Under the pieces are notes generated by a model, which did not search any database, had not been told where the DNA came from, and saw nothing but the letters and a program-made list of their open reading frames with translations. Made by a program: the position numbers and the translations under genes. A DNA stretch of 64,000 nt, from positions 705,535 to 769,534 of the forward strand of contig OZ244879.1 in the NCBI GenBank assembly GCA_965221295.1, in the 5' to 3' direction. Source of the stretch: Dehalococcoidia bacterium. Its GTDB lineage: Bacteria > Chloroflexota > Dehalococcoidia > Lucifugimonadales > UBA3495. Below are positions 38,315-49,695 of this stretch, piece after piece; positions within the stretch are counted from its first letter, which is position 1, and each line of letters starts with the position of its first letter.

Positions 38315-38712
38315 GCGCCCCTCTGCCATTCCGAGGCGCCCGCCCTCTGCCAATGCGAGCCACCCGCCCTCTGCCATTCCGAGGCGCCCGCCCTCTGCCA
38401 ATGCGAGCCACCCGCCCTCTGCCATTCCGAGGCGCCCGCCCTCTGTCAATGCGAACCGTTCCCCATCTGTCATTGCGAGGCGCCCCCCATCTGTCATTGC
38501 GAGGCGCCCTCCCCATCTGTCATTGCGAGGCCGAAGGCCGTGGCAATCTCGTCGACCACAACCAACGACCGTCCGCCCGCCCTCTGTCAATGCGAGCGAC
38601 CCCCCCATCCGTCAATGCGAGGTGCCCCCCATCTGTCATTGCGAGGCCGAAGGCGATGGCAATCTCCCAGGTCACAACCAACGGCCATCCGCCCGCCCTC
38701 CGTCATCGCGAG
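38315..38712. repeat. REP-like array E: short degenerate tandem units plus full arms
   Basis: Repeated ccgccctctgcca(tt/at)(c/g)cgag and ccccatctgtcattgcgagg units. Confidence 0.82.
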
Positions 38713-38747: not shown

Positions 38748-39317
38748 TCAAAACTCGATGCCCGGTTGCGCCTTGATTCCAGCGTCGTAGGGGTGTTTCA
38801 CCACGTTCATCTCCGTTACCAGGTCGGCGTATTCCACCAACGCTTCCGGCGCGTGCCGTCCCGTGATGATGACGTGCTGCATCTCCGGGCGGGCTTTCAG
38901 TGTCTCCACCACGTCCTCCACCGGCAGCCACCCGTAATGCATCGGGTACGTGAACTCATCAAGGATCACCAGGTCATATTCCCCGCCGGCGATCACTTCC
39001 TTGGCGTCCTCCCACAGGGCCCGGGCCAGGTCGGCGCTGGCGTCCAGGTCCTGGGACCGCCAGGTGAAACCGTCACCCATGGCCCGCACGGCCACGCCCA
39101 TTTTTTGGGCCGCTCTCTGCTCGCCAAAATTGGCCGTGGTGTGCTTGATGAACTGCAGCATGATGACCTTCATGTCGCGGCCCCACGACCGCATCAGCAC
39201 GCCCATCGCAGCCGTGGTCTTGCCCTTGCCGTTGCCGGTGTTGACGATCACCAGCCCCTTGTTGATGCGAGGGCCACGCACCGATTGCGGGCCGTGGCGG
39301 GTCTCTTGCGTCGTCAT
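38748..39317 (-). CDS. cobO: Cob(I)yrinic acid a,c-diamide adenosyltransferase (CobO/BtuR type)
   Basis: [45 protein letters not shown]. Confidence 0.92.
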
Positions 39318-39358: not shown

Positions 39359-40732
39359 TCACCCGCTAGATGCGGCGGCGCAGGTTTCTACGAACCGGCG
39401 AGCCAATCCGGGCCGGCTGCCCAGGTGCACGTGTATGTATGATGCCCACACATTGCCCTGCCGAAACCCCTCGGGGCGGCCGGCTTGGTTCATCACTCGG
39501 TACGCCGCCGATTCCATCCCCGGCGGGTCCTGCAGCGCCGACCAGTGGAACTCGTGGCCGCGCACCTGCTGCCCCTTGCGCAGCAATGGACCCTCGGCGC
39601 AAGCCTCCACCTCGCGATAGCCCAGATGCAGCCGCCGATCCTCCATCGAGGACACCACGGGTATCGCCCCCACCATGGGATATTGCCGGCCATCCAGATC
39701 CGACAGGCTGCGGCCCAGGTACATCAGGCCGCCGCACTCTCCGTAAACGGTTGCTCCCCTCTCGATGGCGCCCCGGATGGACTGGAGCATCCCATGGTTC
39801 TCCGACAGCTCTTCGGCGAACAGCTCAGGGAAGCCGCCGCCCAGGTACACGCCGCCTATCCCTTCCGGCAGCGCGGAATCGTCCAACGGCGAGAAAGGAA
39901 CTATCTCCGCCCCCCACGCGGACAGCAAGTCCAACGAGTCCTGGTAATAGAAGGAAAACGCCCGATCCTGCGCCACCGCAATGGCCGTCCGCCTCGGCTG
40001 CAGTTCGTCAGGAAATACCCTGGCGCCAGCGTTGGCGGGTCGCCCGGCGCCCCGGGCGATCCCCACAATGGCGTCCAAGTCGATGGTCTGCTCGATCTGG
40101 GAGTCAAGCGCTTCATACCACTCTTTGACCACGGTGCCTTCCACCGTGGGTATCAATCCCAGGTGGCGCTCTGGCTGCGCCAGATCATCCCGCCGCGGCA
40201 GCCACCCGACGACGGGCAGCCCCGTGGTGGCCTCGATCTGAGGCTTGCAGAATTCCAGGTGACGCTCGCTGCCCAACCCGTTGAGTATTACGCCAGCGAC
40301 GCGAAGCTCCGGGTCAAATTTCTGGTAGCCGAGAACCTCAGCGGCCACGCTTCGCGCCACCTTTCCGGCGTCCGCGATCAGAATTACCGGAGCGTCCAGC
40401 AGCTTGGCCAGCTCGGCGGTGGACCCATCCTCGCCCAGCGAGGAATGCCCGTCAAAGACCCCCATGACACCCTCCACCACCGCGATGTCAGCGGCCCCAG
40501 CGGCCCGGTGGAACAACTCAGCCACCACGGGATGGGGCAACAACCAGGTGTCCAGATTCCGCGAGGGCGTTCCGCACGCGATGGTGTGATAAGTCGGGTC
40601 GATGTAGTCCGGTCCAGCTTTGAACGGCTGCACCCGCAACCCCCGCCGCGCCAACGCCCCCATTATGCCGCTGGCAATGGTCGTCTTGCCCACTCCCGAG
40701 CGTACGCCGGCGATCACTACGGCGGAAGTCAT
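39359..40732 (-). CDS. cbiA: Cobyrinate a,c-diamide synthase
   Basis: SGVGKTT, FKAGPDYIDP, EGVMG.FDG, ERHLGL, GGFPE, ECGGLMYL, GHEFH. Confidence 0.92.
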   Translation of the reverse strand: MTSAVVIAGVRSGVGKTTIASGIMGALARRGLRVQPFKAGPDYIDPTYHTIACGTPSRNLDTWLLPHPVVAELFHRAAGAADIAVVEGVMGVFDGHSSLGEDGSTAELAKLLDAPVILIADAGKVARSVAAEVLGYQKFDPELRVAGVILNGLGSERHLEFCKPQIEATTGLPVVGWLPRRDDLAQPERHLGLIPTVEGTVVKEWYEALDSQIEQTIDLDAIVGIARGAGRPANAGARVFPDELQPRRTAIAVAQDRAFSFYYQDSLDLLSAWGAEIVPFSPLDDSALPEGIGGVYLGGGFPELFAEELSENHGMLQSIRGAIERGATVYGECGGLMYLGRSLSDLDGRQYPMVGAIPVVSSMEDRRLHLGYREVEACAEGPLLRKGQQVRGHEFHWSALQDPPGMESAAYRVMNQAGRPEGFRQGNVWASYIHVHLGSRPGLARRFVETCAAASSG

Positions 40733-40813: not shown

Positions 40814-41263
40814 CTAGGGATGTTCTCCGGCTCGCCCAAATTCGTCCGCGGGCAGGGCGATCTTGCTGGGATACCTGCTCAACAGCGACATGAAGAACTC
40901 GTGCCGCGGAGGGTTGGTGGCGTCGTCATCCGACTTACGCAGGTAGATCCGCATGGCCGGGTTGCCATCGCCGTCCCGCATCCACAACTGGTATGACGGC
41001 AGGCCCTGGTCGTTGGTCGTGTGAATGAATTCGGCCTCGCGAATCTTGGACATGTCCAAGTGCATATGCGTCCCGCCCGGAACCATCAGGGTGACGATCC
41101 GCCCGTCTGGCGTGAACCGGAGATCGTCGAAGTCCATGTAAACCTCGGCGGAAGCCGCGGAGCTTTCCAACATCACCACCACTTCGTTGAAGCCAACCCC
41201 GTCGGCCCCGTCGCGGCACGCTTCGAGAATGTTCTGGAGGGTGGAACCATTGCGTTCGACCAT
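40814..41263 (-). CDS. ChuX/HutX-like tetrapyrrole-binding protein
   Basis: 149 aa; pattern ..E.....HMHLD..KI..AEF...SY.L...DGDG..AMRIYL...FF.L..RY resembles the HemS/ChuX family; RBS GAAGGAG. Confidence 0.6.
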   Translation of the reverse strand: MVERNGSTLQNILEACRDGADGVGFNEVVVMLESSAASAEVYMDFDDLRFTPDGRIVTLMVPGGTHMHLDMSKIREAEFIHTTNDQGLPSYQLWMRDGDGNPAMRIYLRKSDDDATNPPRHEFFMSLLSRYPSKIALPADEFGRAGEHP

Positions 41264-41975: not shown

Positions 41976-42200
41976 CACTGTCATAGCGAGCAGCGGCTTG
42001 TTCTGTAATTGCCAGGCGATCTCCCCACCCGACATTGCGATGCGCTCCCCCTCGACATTGAGAGGCGCCCCCCACCTGTCATTGCGAGGCCGAAGGCCGT
42101 GGCAATCTCGTCGACCGCAACCAACGGCCACCCCCCATCCGTCGCCGGCCATTGCGAGGAGCGCCAGCGACGCGGCAATCCCGCAGCCCACAACCAATCG
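41976..42200. repeat. REP-like array F
   Basis: TGTCATTGCGAGGCCGAAGGCCGTGGCAATCTC and CATTGCGAGGAGCGCCAGCGACGCGGCAATCC arms. Confidence 0.78.
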
Positions 42201-42429: not shown

Positions 42430-42459
42430 TTGACGCCTCAGCCGTCAATCGGGTACATT
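42430..42459 (+). promoter_or_regulatory. Promoter with an inverted repeat overlapping -35, upstream of the ferritin-like pair
   Basis: TTGACG, 18 bp, TACATT; TTGACG-N7-CGTCAA palindrome. Confidence 0.5.
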
Positions 42460-42500
42460 GCCCCGGATACTACGTCCTTTTGGGAATGGGAGGCAGGAAA

Positions 42501-43595
42501 ATGACCATCTTGCAGGATCGCCCCACCGCCGAGATGGAAGAGGCGGTCCAGAACGGTTTCGACCTTTCCTGGCTGCAACAACTCAAGCGCCAAATCCCCG
42601 GCGCCGCCGAGGAACTCGCCAACGATCCAACCCTTGCTGAGCGCTCGGCAGACTTGCTAGACGAGTCGCCCAACCAGACCCAGCGCACCCGCGGCGCTCT
42701 GCCTCGATCCGGCGTACCCCAGTATGCCGCCTACACCTTCCGCGACAAAAAGGAAGTCTGGGGATACAACCTGACCAAGCTCTACCAGGAAGCCGTTTCC
42801 CGGCAGTGGTCGTCCGCCACTGATATTCCTTGGGATTCCCTGCGCCCGCTCCCCGACGACGTCGAAGCCGCCCAATGCCAGCTTGCCACCTTCTTCGCCC
42901 AGGTCGAATTCGTGGCCGCCGACGTGCCGGGCCGCTTCATCGCCCAGATGTCCCCCGATTACCACGAGGTCCGGATGTTCCTCCTCACCCAGGTGATGGA
43001 CGAGTCCCGCCACATGGAGGTATTCCGCAAGCGCGCCCTCTCCAATGGCGGCGGCCTGATGCGCATGATCGACTCCGTCAGCGACGTCACCGGAGGCAGC
43101 ACCGACAACGCCCGCGAATTCACTGAAATGTCCAGCCGTCTTCACATCGTCGGTGAAGGCAACGTGCTCACCCTTTTCCGTTTGGGTGAACTCATGGCGT
43201 ACAACGACGCTGAAAAAGCCATCTATCGACGCGCCGCTCAGGACGAGGCCCGCCACGTCGCGTTCGGCGTCCTTCACGCCCGCTACATGAACGAATGCGC
43301 CCCCGAGCGCCGGGAAGAAATCCACGCCTACTTGGACGAAGCCGAAGACCGTCAGGCCACCGGCAACGGCGGCGAAAACCCGGCCGCCAGGAGCGCCAAC
43401 CTCACCGCCGAATCCCTCGCCATCCTGCTCGGCGGCGGCGCCGACAACGCCGACGAAGGTCAGAAGATCCTTGCCGCCATCCGGCAACGACAGGTCAAGG
43501 AATACTTCCAACGCCTAAAGTCCTGCGGCTTCGACGACCGCATCGAAAATGGCCGCGTCAACCCGGCGCTCCTGGAAGTTTACAAAGCCGCTTGA
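42501..43595 (+). CDS. Ferritin-like diiron protein with complete ligand set
   Basis: QW...DIPW; QVE ... DESRH ... VGE ... DEARH. Confidence 0.82.
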   Translation: MTILQDRPTAEMEEAVQNGFDLSWLQQLKRQIPGAAEELANDPTLAERSADLLDESPNQTQRTRGALPRSGVPQYAAYTFRDKKEVWGYNLTKLYQEAVSRQWSSATDIPWDSLRPLPDDVEAAQCQLATFFAQVEFVAADVPGRFIAQMSPDYHEVRMFLLTQVMDESRHMEVFRKRALSNGGGLMRMIDSVSDVTGGSTDNAREFTEMSSRLHIVGEGNVLTLFRLGELMAYNDAEKAIYRRAAQDEARHVAFGVLHARYMNECAPERREEIHAYLDEAEDRQATGNGGENPAARSANLTAESLAILLGGGADNADEGQKILAAIRQRQVKEYFQRLKSCGFDDRIENGRVNPALLEVYKAA

Positions 43596-43695
43596 TTCCG
43601 CCCACTGGATAAATCAGTCTCTACGGTGGCCCGTCGACCTGGTTTCGGCGGGCCGTTCCTCTACCCCGAGGCATCACTTACTCCGAGGCATCACC

Positions 43696-44895
43696 ATGAC
43701 GCAGAACGACGCTCAGCAACCCGCTCCCGCCGATGCGCCGGCCGACGACAGCGATCCCACCGGCAGCTACCGATCCTCTGCCGCCGACCGGGTTCAGCGC
43801 AACGCCGCCGCCGGCGACTCCGCCGATCCCGCGACGCAAGCGTCGCCCGACGCCCCAGACCAGCAGCCCGACGGGCCATCTGCCGCCGAGCGTTTCCCGT
43901 GGATGAAGGACACCAGGCAATGGGGCGTTCGCGCTCCCCTCACTGCCCACGGCCTCACCGTTGAATCCATCGCCCTTGGCGTGTACGGCGAAATCCCCGA
44001 CGAGAGCCGCGAAATGACCCGGATGCCGCGTGGATCCTTCGCCACACCCGGTATGCCCCGGCTCGACAACTACTCCGTCAACCGCAAGGACGAGCTCTGG
44101 TCTGAAAACGCCTCTTCCCTCTACGAAGAGGCGATTCAACGGCGTTGGAACGCCATGCAGGACATCGCTTGGGACGACCTGCCCACCCTGCCTCAAGACC
44201 TCGAAATCGCTTGGTGCCAGCTGTGCACCGAGTTGGGACAGCACGCCACCGCCGAAATCGACACCATCGGCCAGTGGCTCCATCGCATGAATTACGCCTA
44301 CATCGAACCCAAGATGTTCCTCGCTACCCAGGAATTCGACTCCGCCCGGCATTTCGAGGTGATGCGACATCGAGCCCTGTGCAACGGCGGCGCCCTCGGT
44401 CTCGAATCACCGGGCCACATGAGCCGCCGCATGTTGGAAACCCGCGCCGGTTGGCCCGAAGTCGCCGTCTCTCTCTACATCGCCAGAGGAACCCTAACCC
44501 TGCTGCTCTACCGGTTCGGCGCCCACTTCGCCGCCAACCCGGTTGACCGCAAACTGTTCAGCCTGAGCCTGCAGGACAAAGCCCGACACATGGCCTACGG
44601 ACTCGCCATGCTGAAACTCTCGGTCGCAGTGAAAGGCGCCGACTTCGGAACCTCTTTGCGCAGGATTCTCGGCTCCATCGAAAAGGACATGGCCGCAGAA
44701 CTGAAAGACCCAGCGCTGTGGGAGGCCTTGGCCATCATCAGCGGCGGTTCGGTCCCCATGATGGCCCAGGGCAAGGTTGCGGTTGAACGGCTTCGTTCGA
44801 CCTACGTCCGGCAGTACCTCAAGCGCCTGCAATACGCCGGCATCGATAAGCGGGAGAACGCCCTGCATCCCGACTTGGCCGCAATACTGCAATAA
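43696..44895 (+). CDS. Ferritin-like paralog with degenerate metal ligands
   Basis: Collinear with upstream gene (LYEEAIQRRW..DIAW, MFLATQ, RALCNGG) but DSARH and DKARH replace DExxH. Confidence 0.78.
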   Translation: MTQNDAQQPAPADAPADDSDPTGSYRSSAADRVQRNAAAGDSADPATQASPDAPDQQPDGPSAAERFPWMKDTRQWGVRAPLTAHGLTVESIALGVYGEIPDESREMTRMPRGSFATPGMPRLDNYSVNRKDELWSENASSLYEEAIQRRWNAMQDIAWDDLPTLPQDLEIAWCQLCTELGQHATAEIDTIGQWLHRMNYAYIEPKMFLATQEFDSARHFEVMRHRALCNGGALGLESPGHMSRRMLETRAGWPEVAVSLYIARGTLTLLLYRFGAHFAANPVDRKLFSLSLQDKARHMAYGLAMLKLSVAVKGADFGTSLRRILGSIEKDMAAELKDPALWEALAIISGGSVPMMAQGKVAVERLRSTYVRQYLKRLQYAGIDKRENALHPDLAAILQ

Positions 44896-44991: not shown

Positions 44992-45687
44992 ATGCTCATT
45001 TCCTCTGCCAATCTACTGCCCGACGACCTACCCGCCCTAGTCAGGTTGGCCGTGCTCTGCGCGGTCTCGGCCTCCGTTGCCATGTGGGTCAGCGGCTGGT
45101 TCCAGGCTGTCGCCGCTACGGTGTTCGGCGACCCAGCCCCCAGGGCCCAGGGCCGTCTGTTCGGCAACCCGCTGCGACACCTCGACCCGGTGGGACTCGT
45201 GGTCGCCACCGCTTCCGGCTTGGGCTGGGGAAGGCCGCCGCCCGGGCCGCCCGGGCGTCAGGGCCGATGGCCCTCGGTCGCGGTGGCAATGGCCGGCCCC
45301 TTGGGCAATCTCAGCGTAGGATTCTTGCTGGCGGCGCCGGTCAAGGCAGGGTGGTTGTCTTGGGCGTTTCCGTCTCCGGATAGCCTCACCCTGGTGATGA
45401 CCGGCGGACTCCGCTCCGGTCTATCAGACGTGGTGGGCCTGCTCATCATCTACAACCTCCTCCACGCCGTGTTCCAGTTGCTTCCGCTTTCACCCCTGGC
45501 TGGCTACCGTGTCCTCGCCGTGTTCCTTCCCGCCGCCGCCGCCGAAACCCACCAGCGGTTTCAACGATTCGCCCCGATCCTCCTGGTGGCCTTGATCGCT
45601 TCAGATTACGCGCTGCGACCCGGCCTGCTCTGGGCCACCATACTACCCGCCGTTCATTGGCTGGCGACGCTGGCCACCGGCTTCTAG
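44992..45687 (+). CDS. Site-2 protease (M50)-like membrane protein lacking catalytic residues
   Basis: GDP.P...GRL..NPLRHLDPVG...GWGRP...VAMAGPLGN typical of M50, but no HExxH, and QLLPLSPLAG instead of NLLPxPPLDG. Confidence 0.72.
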   Translation: MLISSANLLPDDLPALVRLAVLCAVSASVAMWVSGWFQAVAATVFGDPAPRAQGRLFGNPLRHLDPVGLVVATASGLGWGRPPPGPPGRQGRWPSVAVAMAGPLGNLSVGFLLAAPVKAGWLSWAFPSPDSLTLVMTGGLRSGLSDVVGLLIIYNLLHAVFQLLPLSPLAGYRVLAVFLPAAAAETHQRFQRFAPILLVALIASDYALRPGLLWATILPAVHWLATLATGF

Positions 45688-45844: not shown

Positions 45845-46642
45845 TCAACCGGTCGGCCCGAACCGCTCGGTTCGGATGGCTGCTTCGGCGATGCCAACGG
45901 ACAGCAGCGCATCTCCAACGGTTTCAACGAATCCCGTCGGCCCGCAAACATAGCAAAGTGGTTGATTGGCGTTGCCCCAAACGCCACCGGCGCCCAGCTT
46001 GGACAACTCATTGAGGCATTCCCGCAGCATCTCGACGTCGACGCGCCGGCGGTACCCCGTCCATCCCGCGGGTTGTCGCCGGGTGAACGTGTACCGCGCC
46101 GTGGCCCGAGGGGAGCGCTCGTCCAGTCCATCCAGCCAGTTCCGGTAGATCACGTCGTCTGGCGTCCGCGCCGAGTAGAGCAGCAAAGCTGGCAGGTCCG
46201 CCGCCACCGCCTCCCGGTGCGCCAGGATGGAACGCAACGGCACGACGCCCGAACCGCCGGCAACCAGCAACAGCGGCCCGCCCATCTCGGCATCCCACGT
46301 GAACGGACCGCCAATCGGTCCGCGGACTTCCAACTCGTCGCCAGGCTCGACCACCTCGTGGAAATAAGGCGATACTTCCCCCTCGTCAATCAACTCCACG
46401 GTCAGGTCGATGACGCCAGCCGCGTCGGTCGGAGCCGACGCTATCGAATAGGAACGCTGGGCTTGATAGCCGTCGGGCGCCGTCAATCGAACGTCGTAAT
46501 GCTGACCAGCGCGAAAGGGAACCGGATGGTCCAGCCGCAGCGTGAAAGTGCGGGCCCGATGGGTCTCTATGGTTACCCGCTCCACGGTCGCTTTGCGCCA
46601 GGGTGACGGAGCGGCGCCGGCGCCCGGAAGAGGTGTCGACAT
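45845..46642 (-). CDS. FAD/NAD(P)-binding oxidoreductase (FNR-like)
   Basis: FRAGQH, RSYSIAS, GEVS, VAGGSGVVP, YVCGP, TERFG. Confidence 0.88.
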   Translation of the reverse strand: MSTPLPGAGAAPSPWRKATVERVTIETHRARTFTLRLDHPVPFRAGQHYDVRLTAPDGYQAQRSYSIASAPTDAAGVIDLTVELIDEGEVSPYFHEVVEPGDELEVRGPIGGPFTWDAEMGGPLLLVAGGSGVVPLRSILAHREAVAADLPALLLYSARTPDDVIYRNWLDGLDERSPRATARYTFTRRQPAGWTGYRRRVDVEMLRECLNELSKLGAGGVWGNANQPLCYVCGPTGFVETVGDALLSVGIAEAAIRTERFGPTG

Positions 46643-46695
46643 GATTCTCAAGAACCCTTACGCAGCGGAAACCGCCCGACCATCGCCCTACTCAC

Positions 46696-47120
46696 TATCA
46701 TCGCGAGGCGCCTGCCCCACCTGCCATCACGAGGCCGAGGGCCGTGGCAATCTCGTAGCCCGCAACCGACGGCTACCTGCATCCCCCACCTGTCATTGCG
46801 AGGCCGAAGGCCGTGGCAATCTCGTAGCCCGCAACCGACGGCTACCTGCATCCCCCACCTGTCATTGCGAGGCCGAAGGCCGTGGCAATCTCGTAGCCTG
46901 CAACCGACGGCTACCTGCATCCGCCACCTGTCATTGCGAGGCCGAAGGCCGTGGCAATCTCGTAGCCTGCAACCGACGGCTACCTGCATCCCCCACCTGT
47001 CATTGCGAGGCCCAAGGCCGTGGCAATCTCGTAGCCCGCAACCGACGGCTACCTGCATCCCCCACCTGTCAACGCGAGGCCGAGGGCCGTGGCAATCTCG
47101 TAGCCCGCAACCGACGACCA
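46696..47120. repeat. REP-like array G: 69-bp unit x6, one arm only
   Basis: CACCTGTCATTGCGAGGCCGAAGGCCGTGGCAATCTCGTAGCCYGCAACCGACGGCTACCTGCATCCCC; GAGGCC at 46731, 46800, 46869, 46938, 47007, 47076. Confidence 0.93.
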
Positions 47121-47134
47121 CCAGTAACAACCCC

Positions 47135-47740
47135 CTAGTCGCCCCAGTATCGTTGCTCTTTCCAGGGGTCGCCGTACATGTGGTAGCCGTACTGCTCCCA
47201 GAACCCAGGTTGGTCCTGGGTCATAAACCTGATGCCCCGCAACCACTTGGCCGACTTCCAGAAATACAGATGGGGAACCACCAGGCGCGCCGGCCCACCG
47301 TGCTCGGGCGCGATGGGCTGCCCGTCGAATTCGTACGCCACCATGCCGCGGCCTTCGACCACGTCCCACGTCGGCAGGTTAGTGGTATATCCGCCGTAGC
47401 AAAACGCCATCAGATACGGCGCCGGCTCGCTGACGCCGGCTGCAATCAGCAGGTCGTCAATGGCAACGCCCTTCCAGGTGGTATCGAGCTTGCTCCACTT
47501 CGTAACGCAGTGGATGTCGGTGAAAATTTCCGTCTCCGGCAGGCTGCGAAACTCCTGCCAGTTCCATTCCCCCAGCGGTTCGCCATCAGCGCCCAACAAG
47601 GCGAAAGACCATTGATCCAGCGGTACGCGTTGCGTGGGACCGGCGGTGAGCACCGGGAAGCCACGTTCCAGGTACTGGCCGGGCGGAATCGGGCGCGGCG
47701 GCGTTTCGCGTCGCCGTCCGAAGAACCCTCGTGTGGTCAT
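47135..47740 (-). CDS. Sulfite oxidase-like molybdopterin oxidoreductase
   Basis: PPGQY..FPVL, DIHCVTKWS, YTTNLP, EHGGPARLVVPHLYFWKSAKW, GFWE..GYH. Confidence 0.88.
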   Translation of the reverse strand: MTTRGFFGRRRETPPRPIPPGQYLERGFPVLTAGPTQRVPLDQWSFALLGADGEPLGEWNWQEFRSLPETEIFTDIHCVTKWSKLDTTWKGVAIDDLLIAAGVSEPAPYLMAFCYGGYTTNLPTWDVVEGRGMVAYEFDGQPIAPEHGGPARLVVPHLYFWKSAKWLRGIRFMTQDQPGFWEQYGYHMYGDPWKEQRYWGD

Positions 47741-48134
47741 GTTAGCTGAACTCCTGGCCTTTTGACGCTTTCGCGCGCGAGTGTGCCCTCAACGTTTACG
47801 AGAACCCAACGGAAGTTACCGAAATAGCCGGCGGCTGTCAAACCGCGTAACCGCCGTCATCCGGCTCTCCTACCTATCATCGCGAGGCGCTACTCCCCTG
47901 ACATTTGTAGGTTGCATGAGCCGCCCGGATAGGCCAATGCGGGGAGCGCCAGCGACGTGGTATCTCGTTGCCTGGGCGAACAGTCGCGCGTTGTGGTCGT
48001 CGAGATTGCCGCGCTTCGTTCGCAATGACAGAAGCGATTGTCATTGCGAGGAGCGCCAGCGACGTGGCAATCTCGTTGCCTGGGCGAACGACCGCGCGTT
48101 GTGGTCGTCGAGATTGCCGCGCTGCGCTCGCAAT

Positions 48135-49190
48135 TGTAAATGTCAGCTAATTCGATGACAGATCTTGCATGGCCTGTTGTGGGGTTTTGCCGTTCAGGGC
48201 CTGGTGAGGACGGAGGGTATTGTAGTACACCATGTAGTTGAGCAACTCGTCCTTGAGCTGTTGAGCCGTCTCGAAGACGCTACCATCGAGCAGGTCTTCG
48301 TTCAGGGTTCTCCAGAACCGTTCGACCTTACCGTTGGTTTGGGGCCGGTAGGGTCGAGTGTAGCGATGCTTGATGCCTAGTTCCTTCAGCATCCGTTCCA
48401 TGGGGTGGTTGTCGATGTTCTTGGGTGAAGCCATCTCCGGTCCGTTGTCGGTGAGCATGGCTTCGAAGCGCACCCCGTATTCGGCGTGCAGCATGTTGAT
48501 GCTCTTGAGGGTGGCGAACATCACGCTGAGGCTCTTGATGTTCTCGCACACCTCTGCCCAAGCCAGCCGAGTGCAGGCGTCCATCACACAGACCAGATAG
48601 TAGCGCCGGGCCGCGCCCACGATCAGGTCCTTGCTCAGGTGATGGGCGTCCAAGTGGCCCAATTCCCCAGCTCGGGTCTTGATGATGCGACGCTGGGTCT
48701 CTTTCATGGGTTGGCTCATCCGGTTCAAGCCATGCCGCTTGCAGATGGCGTAGATGGTGGAGGGCGCTGGCGCGGCCTCCCGGAGTTCCGGCTTCAGTAT
48801 GGCATAGATCTCATAGCGGTCAATGCCTCGGCGCCGTAGTTCCAGCACCTTCTCTTCGATGTCTGGGCTGGTGCGCCGGGTCTTCCACTTGGGACCGCGC
48901 TGGCGCGGCAGCAGATCGGCAGAATCGCCGGATTGCAAGTAGCGATTGTGATACTTGGCGAAGGTCTGTCGGTTGACGCCGTGATGCTGGTAGAAGTCGT
49001 TGAGGAAGCGAAACCTGGGATGCTGGCCAGCCTTGGTTAGCTGGTACTCAGACATCAGGTGAAGCCACTTTTGCACGTAGTTCCGCTCGATGGTCTTGTC
49101 TTTCCGATTGTCCCTCATTTTCTCCGATCGCCTCCAGTCGCTCCGGTCCTCGCCAGACCAATTCTGTCAACGAATTATCTAACAGATACA
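48135..49190 (-). mobile_element. IS481-family insertion sequence, 1056 bp
   Basis: Imperfect 28-bp terminal IRs TGTAAATGTCAGCTAATTCGATGACAGA / TGTATCTGTTAGATAATTCGTTGACAGA; GCAAT duplicated at 48130-48134 and 49191-49195. Confidence 0.9.
48147..49118 (-). CDS. IS481-family DDE transposase (integrase core)
   Basis: GELGHLD...DACTR...LTDNGPE...PYRPQTNGKVERFWRTL...YNTLRPHQAL.GKTP. Confidence 0.92.
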   Translation of the reverse strand: MRDNRKDKTIERNYVQKWLHLMSEYQLTKAGQHPRFRFLNDFYQHHGVNRQTFAKYHNRYLQSGDSADLLPRQRGPKWKTRRTSPDIEEKVLELRRRGIDRYEIYAILKPELREAAPAPSTIYAICKRHGLNRMSQPMKETQRRIIKTRAGELGHLDAHHLSKDLIVGAARRYYLVCVMDACTRLAWAEVCENIKSLSVMFATLKSINMLHAEYGVRFEAMLTDNGPEMASPKNIDNHPMERMLKELGIKHRYTRPYRPQTNGKVERFWRTLNEDLLDGSVFETAQQLKDELLNYMVYYNTLRPHQALNGKTPQQAMQDLSSN

Positions 49191-49695
49191 GCAATGACAG
49201 AAGCGATTGTCATGGCGAGGAGCGCCAGCGACGTGGCAATCTCGTTGCCTGGGCGAACGGCGGCGCGTTGTGGTCGTCGAGATTGCCGCGCTTCGCTCGC
49301 AATGACAGAAGCGATTGTCATGGCGAGGAGCGCCAGCGACGTGGCAATCTCGTTGCCTGGGCGAACAGTCGCGCGTTGTGGTCGTCGAGATTGCCGCGCT
49401 GCGCTCGCAATGACAGAAGCGATAGTCAAGGCGAGGAGCGCCAGCGACGCGGCAATCCCCTTGCCCCGCGAACGGCCGTCGGGGCGGGGCGGCGATTCGC
49501 CGCAGGCTTCTTGGTTCCACCATCGCGAGGAAGGCAAAAACGACGCTATGCCGCCCGCGGTCTACGGTTGCCGCGCCCCCCAGCCGCTCCCGCATGGCAA
49601 CCAGCGGCCCACCGTGCTGCCTCGCTTGCCCACATTGAACCGCGTGATTACAATGCAGCCAATTGCTTCCCCGGGCGAGCCTCAGGAGTTTCACA

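Follow-up and report, generated by a model that had tools for sequence, protein, structure and literature searches.

In yeast, Rnr2, a full-site small subunit of ribonucleotide reductase (RNR), is paired with Rnr4, a ligand-lost paralog with a structural or assembly role. MmoX/MmoY and PaaA/PaaC are likewise built on a plan of one catalytic and one ligand-poor paralogous subunit. According to PMC9314684, R2lox-type proteins have a well-studied Mn/Fe chemistry and no known substrate or physiological role; they bind long-chain (hydroxy) fatty acids, of which C16/C18 hydroxy fatty acids co-purify with them. In haloarchaea, the R2lox genes are grouped with those for ferredoxin and sterol carriers and show a response to hexadecane. 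The same paper describes ADO as a ferritin-fold enzyme of long-chain aliphatic substrates with ferredoxin-supplied electrons. VlmB, the azoxy synthase of the valanimycin pathway, works with the membrane protein VlmO within an antibiotic gene cluster (PMC11705231). Here we describe two adjacent genes, alpha and beta, located in a 64,000-nucleotide stretch of a Dehalococcoidia bacterium genome (assembly GCA_965221295.1, contig OZ244879.1, positions 705,535 to 769,534; hereafter the window), which encode a protein with a complete dimetal site of the R2 type and a paralog that has lost it.

Set beside these systems, the alpha/beta pair would be an R2-like dimetal oxidase of known fold, set apart by its dead-paralog partner and dedicated carriers. 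The interpretation we favour, on which the evidence seems to us evenly poised, is that alpha and beta form the core of a heteromeric R2-like dimetal-carboxylate oxidase or oxygenase that acts on a hydrophobic substrate together with SCP2-fold and Zn-ribbon partners.

Sequence features of the pair

The two open reading frames (ORFs; Table 1) are collinear and 100 nt apart, and BLASTP identifies their products as paralogs, with an E of 5e-46 and 32% identity across 298 aligned columns. The dimetal ligand set of alpha is complete, comprising E136, E168, H171, E219, E249 and H252. In an alignment of the window alpha with 27 relatives (mean column identity 61%), the residues E136, D167-E168-x-R170-H171, E219 and D248-E249-x-R251-H252 are invariant in 28/28 sequences, x being S169 and A250 in the window alpha. 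The same holds for H215 and F175. The latter, four residues past H171, occupies what we take to be the place of the radical tyrosine in R2; by this placement, no alpha in the alignment has that tyrosine. The C terminus carries no conserved tail motif.

Beta retains the D..R.H scaffold residues and reads A184, D215-S216-A-R218-H219, R264-G265 and D294-K295-A-R297-H298 at the ligand positions. All four carboxylates are replaced in 15/15 aligned betas (in the window by A184, S216, G265 and K295), the position of residue 216 being S, T or A, and the first His is gone in three of the 15. The N-terminal ~65 residues of beta are rich in Ala, Asp, Pro and Gln, and this region varies in length among relatives. 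The ORFs, the BLASTP alignment and the two ligand patterns bear out what a first-pass annotation had read from the letters of the window, a tandem collinear pair of paralogs with an intact first and a ligand-less second member.

Family size and linkage of alpha and beta

A word-indexed search retrieved 1977 homologs, all labelled ‘hypothetical’ or ‘ferritin-like domain-containing’, and an exhaustive one returned 914 clusters (50% identity). The best 150 of these 914 all lie within the family (E 5e-32 or better), with no bridge to a named family. Among them are 68 full-length representatives (300 aa or more): 30 have the full EEHEEH set, five are cut but consistent with it, and 33 have replaced ligands, which vary freely. 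This split points to an old divergence between a catalytic lineage under constraint and a structural lineage free of ligands.

We collected 80 loci from species-representative genomes of Dehalococcoidia/Chloroflexota, Entotheonella and Pseudomonadales. In 77 of them beta follows alpha immediately, and two further loci are cut by contig ends; the adjacency noted in the first-pass annotation is therefore general among these loci. The sole exception (L042) has its beta on another contig of the same genome (77% identity).

Other arrangements occur in Dehalococcoidia: an alpha-alpha tandem (L089), an alpha-alpha-beta-SCP2 array (L088) and a lone alpha (L090), all of these alphas being ligand-complete, and one genome (G154) holds two alpha/beta pairs together with two lone alphas. 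Certain Dehalococcoidia lineages have up to 5 alpha copies per genome, and in at least one locus lone alphas sit among genes for luciferase-like monooxygenase, amidohydrolase, short-chain dehydrogenase/reductase (SDR), Rieske and glyoxalase proteins. Such copy numbers and surroundings are more in line with a catabolic oxygenase than with a housekeeping enzyme.

In the genome with the relocated beta, two tandem PaREP1-family genes (L042:9135-9874, plus strand) stand directly downstream of alpha; this family has been described from archaea. Three other loci (L023, L048 and L074) have 2.1-2.3 kb of extra DNA between alpha and beta, compared with 100 nt in the window, and the ORFs within the L048 insert are short.

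Family placement and fold

Neither alpha nor beta reaches any curated Pfam or NCBIfam threshold, in keeping with the earlier proposal that the pair lies outside the named families. The nearest named hidden Markov model (HMM) family is R2lox (NCBIfam NF006198-NF006202), whose best-scoring model, NF006200, is weakly matched by 28/28 alphas at a best E of 7e-10, far below threshold (window alpha 35.7 bits against a cut-off of 194; beta 19.2 bits). Ribonuc_red_sm (PF00268) scores 16.7 bits with the window alpha, under its cut-off of 33.6, and has sub-threshold matches in 2/28 alphas; DUF455 scores 14 bits and is weakly matched by 21/28, and AurF (PF11583) is matched by 2/28 with a best E of 0.096. 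Phenol_Hydrox (PF02332) and PaaA_PaaC found no match at E ≤1 in 28/28 alphas or in beta. The nearest named ESM-Atlas clusters carry PF11583 in 12-100% of their members, which we treat as a lead only. When searched against PDB sequences with phmmer, alpha matched best the VlmB homolog 6d9f/8wvr (E 3e-4 across 67 residues; E 9e-4 with a profile), then ADO 5uxg (E 0.04) and R2lox (E 0.1-0.8); beta had no match at E ≤10. The open literature, subscription journals being outside the scope of the search, yielded no description of the alpha/beta family, and only PMC9314684 was related.

The AlphaFold2 model of alpha has a predicted local distance difference test (pLDDT) value of 72.3, with core helices at 80-92. 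Its best structural match by VIA-align is VlmB (Z 23.2, root-mean-square deviation (rmsd) 2.6-2.8 Å, 255-256 residues, 20% identity; for 8wvr, rmsd 2.8 Å over 256 residues), a relationship also seen with Foldseek (E 1.7e-4); the two comparisons put the identity at 20-22%. R2lox follows at Z 21-21.6 (3ee4 at 21.6; 7qbp and 6f6f), together with RNR R2 at Z ~21, MMOH at 20.6 and ADO at 20.4. These closest folds all belong to O2-activating dimetal proteins, and the modelled structure makes alpha a dimetal protein with an R2-like ferritin fold whose family is unnamed. The first-pass annotation had set the subunit plan of the pair beside that of soluble diiron monooxygenases and PaaA/PaaC. The active/inactive ferritin-fold architecture is indeed shared, but the likeness is architectural only, the nearest structures being VlmB and R2lox/R2.

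VlmB (8wvr, 6d9f) has the E/DExRH/E/DExRH layout of alpha in an HMMER alignment; alpha, unlike VlmB, has a ligand-less paralog, SCP2-fold and Zn-ribbon partners, and no biosynthetic context. R2lox shares the R2 fold and an E/ExxH/E/ExxH dimetal site with alpha, and is not known to have a ligand-less partner. The Tyr of its Tyr-Val ether cross-link may be absent from alpha, where the position, judged by spacing, is presumably that of L214, an invariant residue five positions before E219. V138 aligns with the Val of GkR2lox two residues past the first ligand, in an HMMER alignment that excludes the Tyr region. The N-terminal extension of alpha, with invariant N58, T60, G65, R69, Y78, K83 and W87, has no R2lox counterpart. 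The ferredoxin and sterol-carrier neighbours of haloarchaeal R2lox (PMC9314684) parallel the SCP2-fold and four-Cys partners of alpha/beta. MmoX has ~500 aa, in contrast to about 350-400 aa for both alpha and beta, and the alpha/beta loci conserve no coupling protein, gamma subunit or reductase. ADO, whose similarity to alpha is marginal although it is the second-best PDB sequence match, differs in being a single subunit of ~220-230 aa that has no paralog partner. Unlike Rnr2/Rnr4, the pair is unlikely to be an RNR component, since the genome has a class II RNR and PF00268 stays under its cut-off, and its partners have a lipid-carrier fold.

SCP2-fold and Zn-ribbon partners

We clustered the ORFs of 16 loci and the window, 14 of the loci being below 75% identity. 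In 13-14 of these 14 distant loci the operon continues with a protein of ~140-165 aa, present in one or two copies, and a second one of ~95-100 aa. The smaller protein starts with MPxYEYxC and has four Cys in a CxxC...CxxC arrangement; it belongs to Zn_ribbon_8, the FmdB-type family PF09723 (41.4 bits for the copy in the window genome against a cut-off of 34.4; 40.3 and 47.0 in relatives). The larger one is modelled with a pLDDT of 91.8 as an SCP2 alpha/beta fold, closest to Thermus SCP2 2cx7 (E 2e-5, template modelling (TM) scores 0.64/0.71, rmsd 2.9), followed by 1wfr and UbiJ-SCP2 6h6o.

The window genome encodes both proteins at a second locus about 373 kb from alpha/beta, where their genes are 48 nt apart and flanked by an alpha/beta-hydrolase gene and a beta-lactamase-family gene. 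The statement of the first-pass annotation that the enzyme was minimal, with nothing co-encoded, has thus to be given up: the cassette of distant relatives includes an SCP2-fold and a Zn_ribbon_8 protein, and the window genome holds the two elsewhere.

Among 201 Dehalococcoidia genomes, alpha (E 1e-60 or better) was found in 54 and the SCP2-like protein in 59; 51 have both, three alpha only and eight the SCP2-like protein only, seven of these eight being weaker matches within a single family. The Zn-ribbon subfamily occurs in 18 genomes, all alpha-positive, and 16 of its 19 matches adjoin an SCP2-like match. These figures are counts and not a test, as kin are not independent. Six genomes from another family (f24) have alpha hundreds of kb away from the SCP2/Zn-ribbon pair, so the cassette splits repeatedly into two two-gene modules that are both retained in the genome.

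Predicted complex and the role of beta

The predicted complex of alpha and beta scored an ipSAE of 0.83, against 0.00 for the best of three controls; 116 of 157 solved complexes reach this mark, as do 2 of 215 mismatched pairs. Contact agreement between runs was at least 96% and the partner pLDDT at least 88. The interface would join residues 96-107 and 134-176 of alpha to 143-155 and 185-224 of beta, i.e., the helices bearing the first ligand and the first ExxH motif. The heterodimer postulated in the first-pass annotation is accordingly predicted, but since R2-type dimers have been solved and belong to the training data, the high score may reflect memory of them.

Alternatively, alpha could be an ordinary R2-type homodimer and beta a pseudoenzyme with a separate role as a regulator or as a metal-loading or stabilising chaperone, of which yeast Rnr4 is an example, instead of a stoichiometric subunit. 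Lone alphas and alpha-alpha tandems with full ligands, which coexist with alpha/beta pairs in one genome, agree with it, and the solved relatives R2, R2lox and VlmB are not known to need a dead paralog. Yet beta adjoins alpha in nearly all orthologous loci and is kept even when unlinked, it conserves the helices predicted to contact alpha, and the complex scored far above its controls, with the reservation about memory just given. We therefore regard a separate role of beta as unlikely, though it is the strongest of the competing explanations.

Proposed function

In the heteromeric enzyme that we favour, alpha would carry an O2-activating Fe/Fe or Mn/Fe site. Its first ligand E and the Phe at the radical-Tyr position presumably match the Mn/Fe proteins R2c and R2lox; both residues also occur in diiron enzymes, so we leave the two metal contents as alternatives. 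Beta would be non-catalytic and take the place of the second protomer in an R2-type dimer, pairing with alpha through the interface helices named above, like Rnr4 with Rnr2. One or two SCP2-fold carriers would hand a hydrophobic, lipid-like substrate to alpha; a greasy substrate is probable because the family travels with lipid-carrier-like proteins. The four-Cys protein might shuttle electrons in the manner of a rubredoxin, or serve as an adaptor or docking part. The candidate reactions on a long aliphatic chain are hydroxylation, desaturation and deformylation.

Several points weigh against this interpretation. Every member of the proposed system is known from genes and models, and the model of alpha is only moderately confident. 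The complex score shows likeness to an R2 dimer and not a preference for heterodimer over homodimer. Beta is not obligatory for the wider family, because ligand-complete alphas occur alone, in alpha-alpha tandems and in the alpha-alpha-beta-SCP2 array. The SCP2-like protein has no Pfam match at E ≤1 in four relatives or at ≤0.001 in the copy of the window genome, the four-Cys protein matches a zinc-ribbon family and not rubredoxin, and in the window genome the accessory genes are unlinked to the alpha/beta pair. A Pfam scan of 105 ORFs in the flanks of 10 distant loci, whose greedy ORF choice may include shadow ORFs, revealed no shared pathway; the flanks all differ and contain transporters, SDRs, thiolase, Rieske oxygenases, amidase and others. 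No reductase conserved with the cassette was seen in these 10 loci.

A role in natural-product tailoring, with the pair as a VlmB/AurF-kind N-oxygenase or azoxy synthase and a hydrazine or amine as the substrate, would account for VlmB being the best match of alpha in both sequence and fold and for the AurF content of the nearest named ESM-Atlas clusters. Identity to VlmB is nevertheless 20-22%, and the AurF model is matched by two of the 28 alphas at E 0.096 or worse. No biosynthetic cluster surrounds the pair: Pfam found no VlmO-type or azoxy cluster in the window or in the flanks of the 10 distant loci, no search with a VlmO sequence having been made. The conserved partners are SCP2-fold and Zn-ribbon proteins and not a membrane protein such as the VlmO described for VlmB (PMC11705231), and some genomes have up to 5 alpha copies, with lone alphas among catabolic-type genes. 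Taken together, this makes a tailoring enzyme improbable.

A bolder version of the favoured interpretation seems to us possible, if rather doubtful. The family would represent a new heteromeric R2-like class of oxygenase (Fe/Fe or Mn/Fe), with a catalytic alpha, a scaffold beta, SCP2 carriers supplying an isoprenoid or long-chain aliphatic substrate, and a four-Cys protein that feeds electrons like a rubredoxin. Marine SAR202-type Dehalococcoidia, Entotheonella and some Gammaproteobacteria would rely on it for oxidising lipid-like matter of a recalcitrant kind, and it would explain the physiological logic of R2lox-type proteins as well.

Because alpha copies have expanded and, at one locus at least, have oxygenase, amidohydrolase and dehydrogenase genes around them, the family may be one of the oxidative tools used on refractory organic matter in the ocean and by sponge symbionts. 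It offers genetic handles that R2lox lacks, being large and strongly conserved, with an obligate-looking dead paralog, SCP2 carriers and a four-Cys protein, and the substrate might be identified directly from ligands that co-purify with its SCP2 proteins.

Promoter region

A consensus scan found one sigma-70-type promoter-like site upstream of alpha, where 0.5 were expected (Table 1). It overlaps an exact 6+6 palindrome, TTGACG-N7-CGTCAA at 42430-42448, in which the first-pass annotation had seen a feature of the promoter. This palindrome would be well placed to serve as the operator of a regulator dedicated to the pair; one match was found against 0.14 expected by chance. However, 14 of 100 shuffles yield at least one such match, and the palindrome alone is therefore not beyond chance. 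The pattern TTGAC-N(18-20)-TAnAnT is present within 200 nt 5' of alpha in 50 of 78 loci, and the right arm of the palindrome is kept in one of the 78 (L001). The left arm is thus the -35 hexamer and the right arm unconserved spacer, no regulator gene is conserved beside the pair, and an operator at this site is highly improbable.

Neighbouring genes and ribonucleotide reductase

Table 1 Coordinates of the features discussed (window positions; G000:C1 entries refer to the second locus of the window genome)
Feature	Position	Strand	Evidence or remarks
Sigma-70-type promoter-like site	42430-42459	+	-35 TTGACG 42430-42435, 18-nt spacer, -10 TACATT 42454-42459
Alpha subunit, 364 aa, R2-like ferritin-fold	42501-43595	+	Translation; GGGAGG Shine-Dalgarno upstream
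Beta subunit, 399 aa, alpha paralog	43696-44895	+	Translation; GAGG 9 nt upstream
Zn_ribbon_8 protein	G000:C1:1122755-1123060		Pfam over cut-off
SCP2-like protein	G000:C1:1123109-1123534		Predicted SCP2 fold
M50-like membrane protein	44992-45687	+	Syntenic with FNR-like/Oxidored_molyb pair
FNR-like flavoprotein, FAD_binding_6 + NAD_binding_1	45845-46651	-	Pfam
Small Oxidored_molyb (sulfite-oxidase-fold) gene	47135-47740	-	Pfam
Transposase, rve integrase core domains	48147-49118	-	Pfam; 108-nt repeat arrays on both sides
149-aa ORF, sub-threshold ChuX/HutX haem-utilisation match	40814-41263	-	22.3 bits vs cut-off 25

The FNR-like gene had been put forward as a candidate electron source. We rejected it as the reductase of the system: it is convergent to alpha/beta and forms a conserved pair with the Oxidored_molyb gene. 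Both genes of this pair, together with the M50-like gene, keep their synteny in 33 close loci, and the pair is absent from the distant loci. Rieske genes near three relatives (L056, L073 and L090) are not conserved, and no coupling protein or gamma subunit conserved with the cassette was seen in the clustered loci or the 10 flank sets.

At one locus of Candidatus Azotimanducaceae, the cassette is immediately preceded by a divergent ORF of 243 aa that ends in a rubredoxin domain (L077:7267-7995, minus strand). This ORF is a possible electron donor at that locus, judged by its domain, and has no equivalent in the other nine of the 10 loci examined.

The sole PF02867 RNR large subunit of the window genome is class II and B12-dependent (NF006417, 1112 bits against 961; TIGR02504, 708 against 400), and a genome-wide search detected no PF00268 gene, which makes an R2-subunit role for the pair unlikely. 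The least probable of all the readings has the pair as a divergent RNR small subunit, an R2c-like heterodimer in the style of Rnr2/Rnr4: the weak PF00268 match, the R2 structures at Z ~21, and the first ligand E with F at the radical-Tyr position, which we take to resemble Chlamydia R2c, favour it, but that match is under the cut-off and found in 2/28 alphas, the only large subunit is of a class needing no R2, the cassette partners have the SCP2 fold and alpha is devoid of a conserved C-terminal tail motif.

The class II RNR gene itself (G000:C1 about 628367-632098; L092:1105-4836) encodes 1243 aa, and its match to the family is broken into two stretches. The ~390-aa insert weakly matches an intein-bearing DnaB model and is probably an intein.

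Other features of the window

Intergenic tandem-repeat arrays occur at 38318-38712, 42008-42090, 46715-47116, 47938-48134 and 49191-49465, with periods of 24/48/116, 23, 69 (5.8 copies, 96% matches) and 108 nt. Most of them share a CATTGCGAGG-like core, and they fill most intergenic gaps around alpha/beta; they also create long spurious ORFs in several frames. The transposase gene is absent from this position in relatives, a major facilitator superfamily (MFS) gene following directly in nine loci. Close to the ORF with the ChuX/HutX match, the genes at 38748-39317 and 39359-40732 look by eye like members of the cobalamin pathway.

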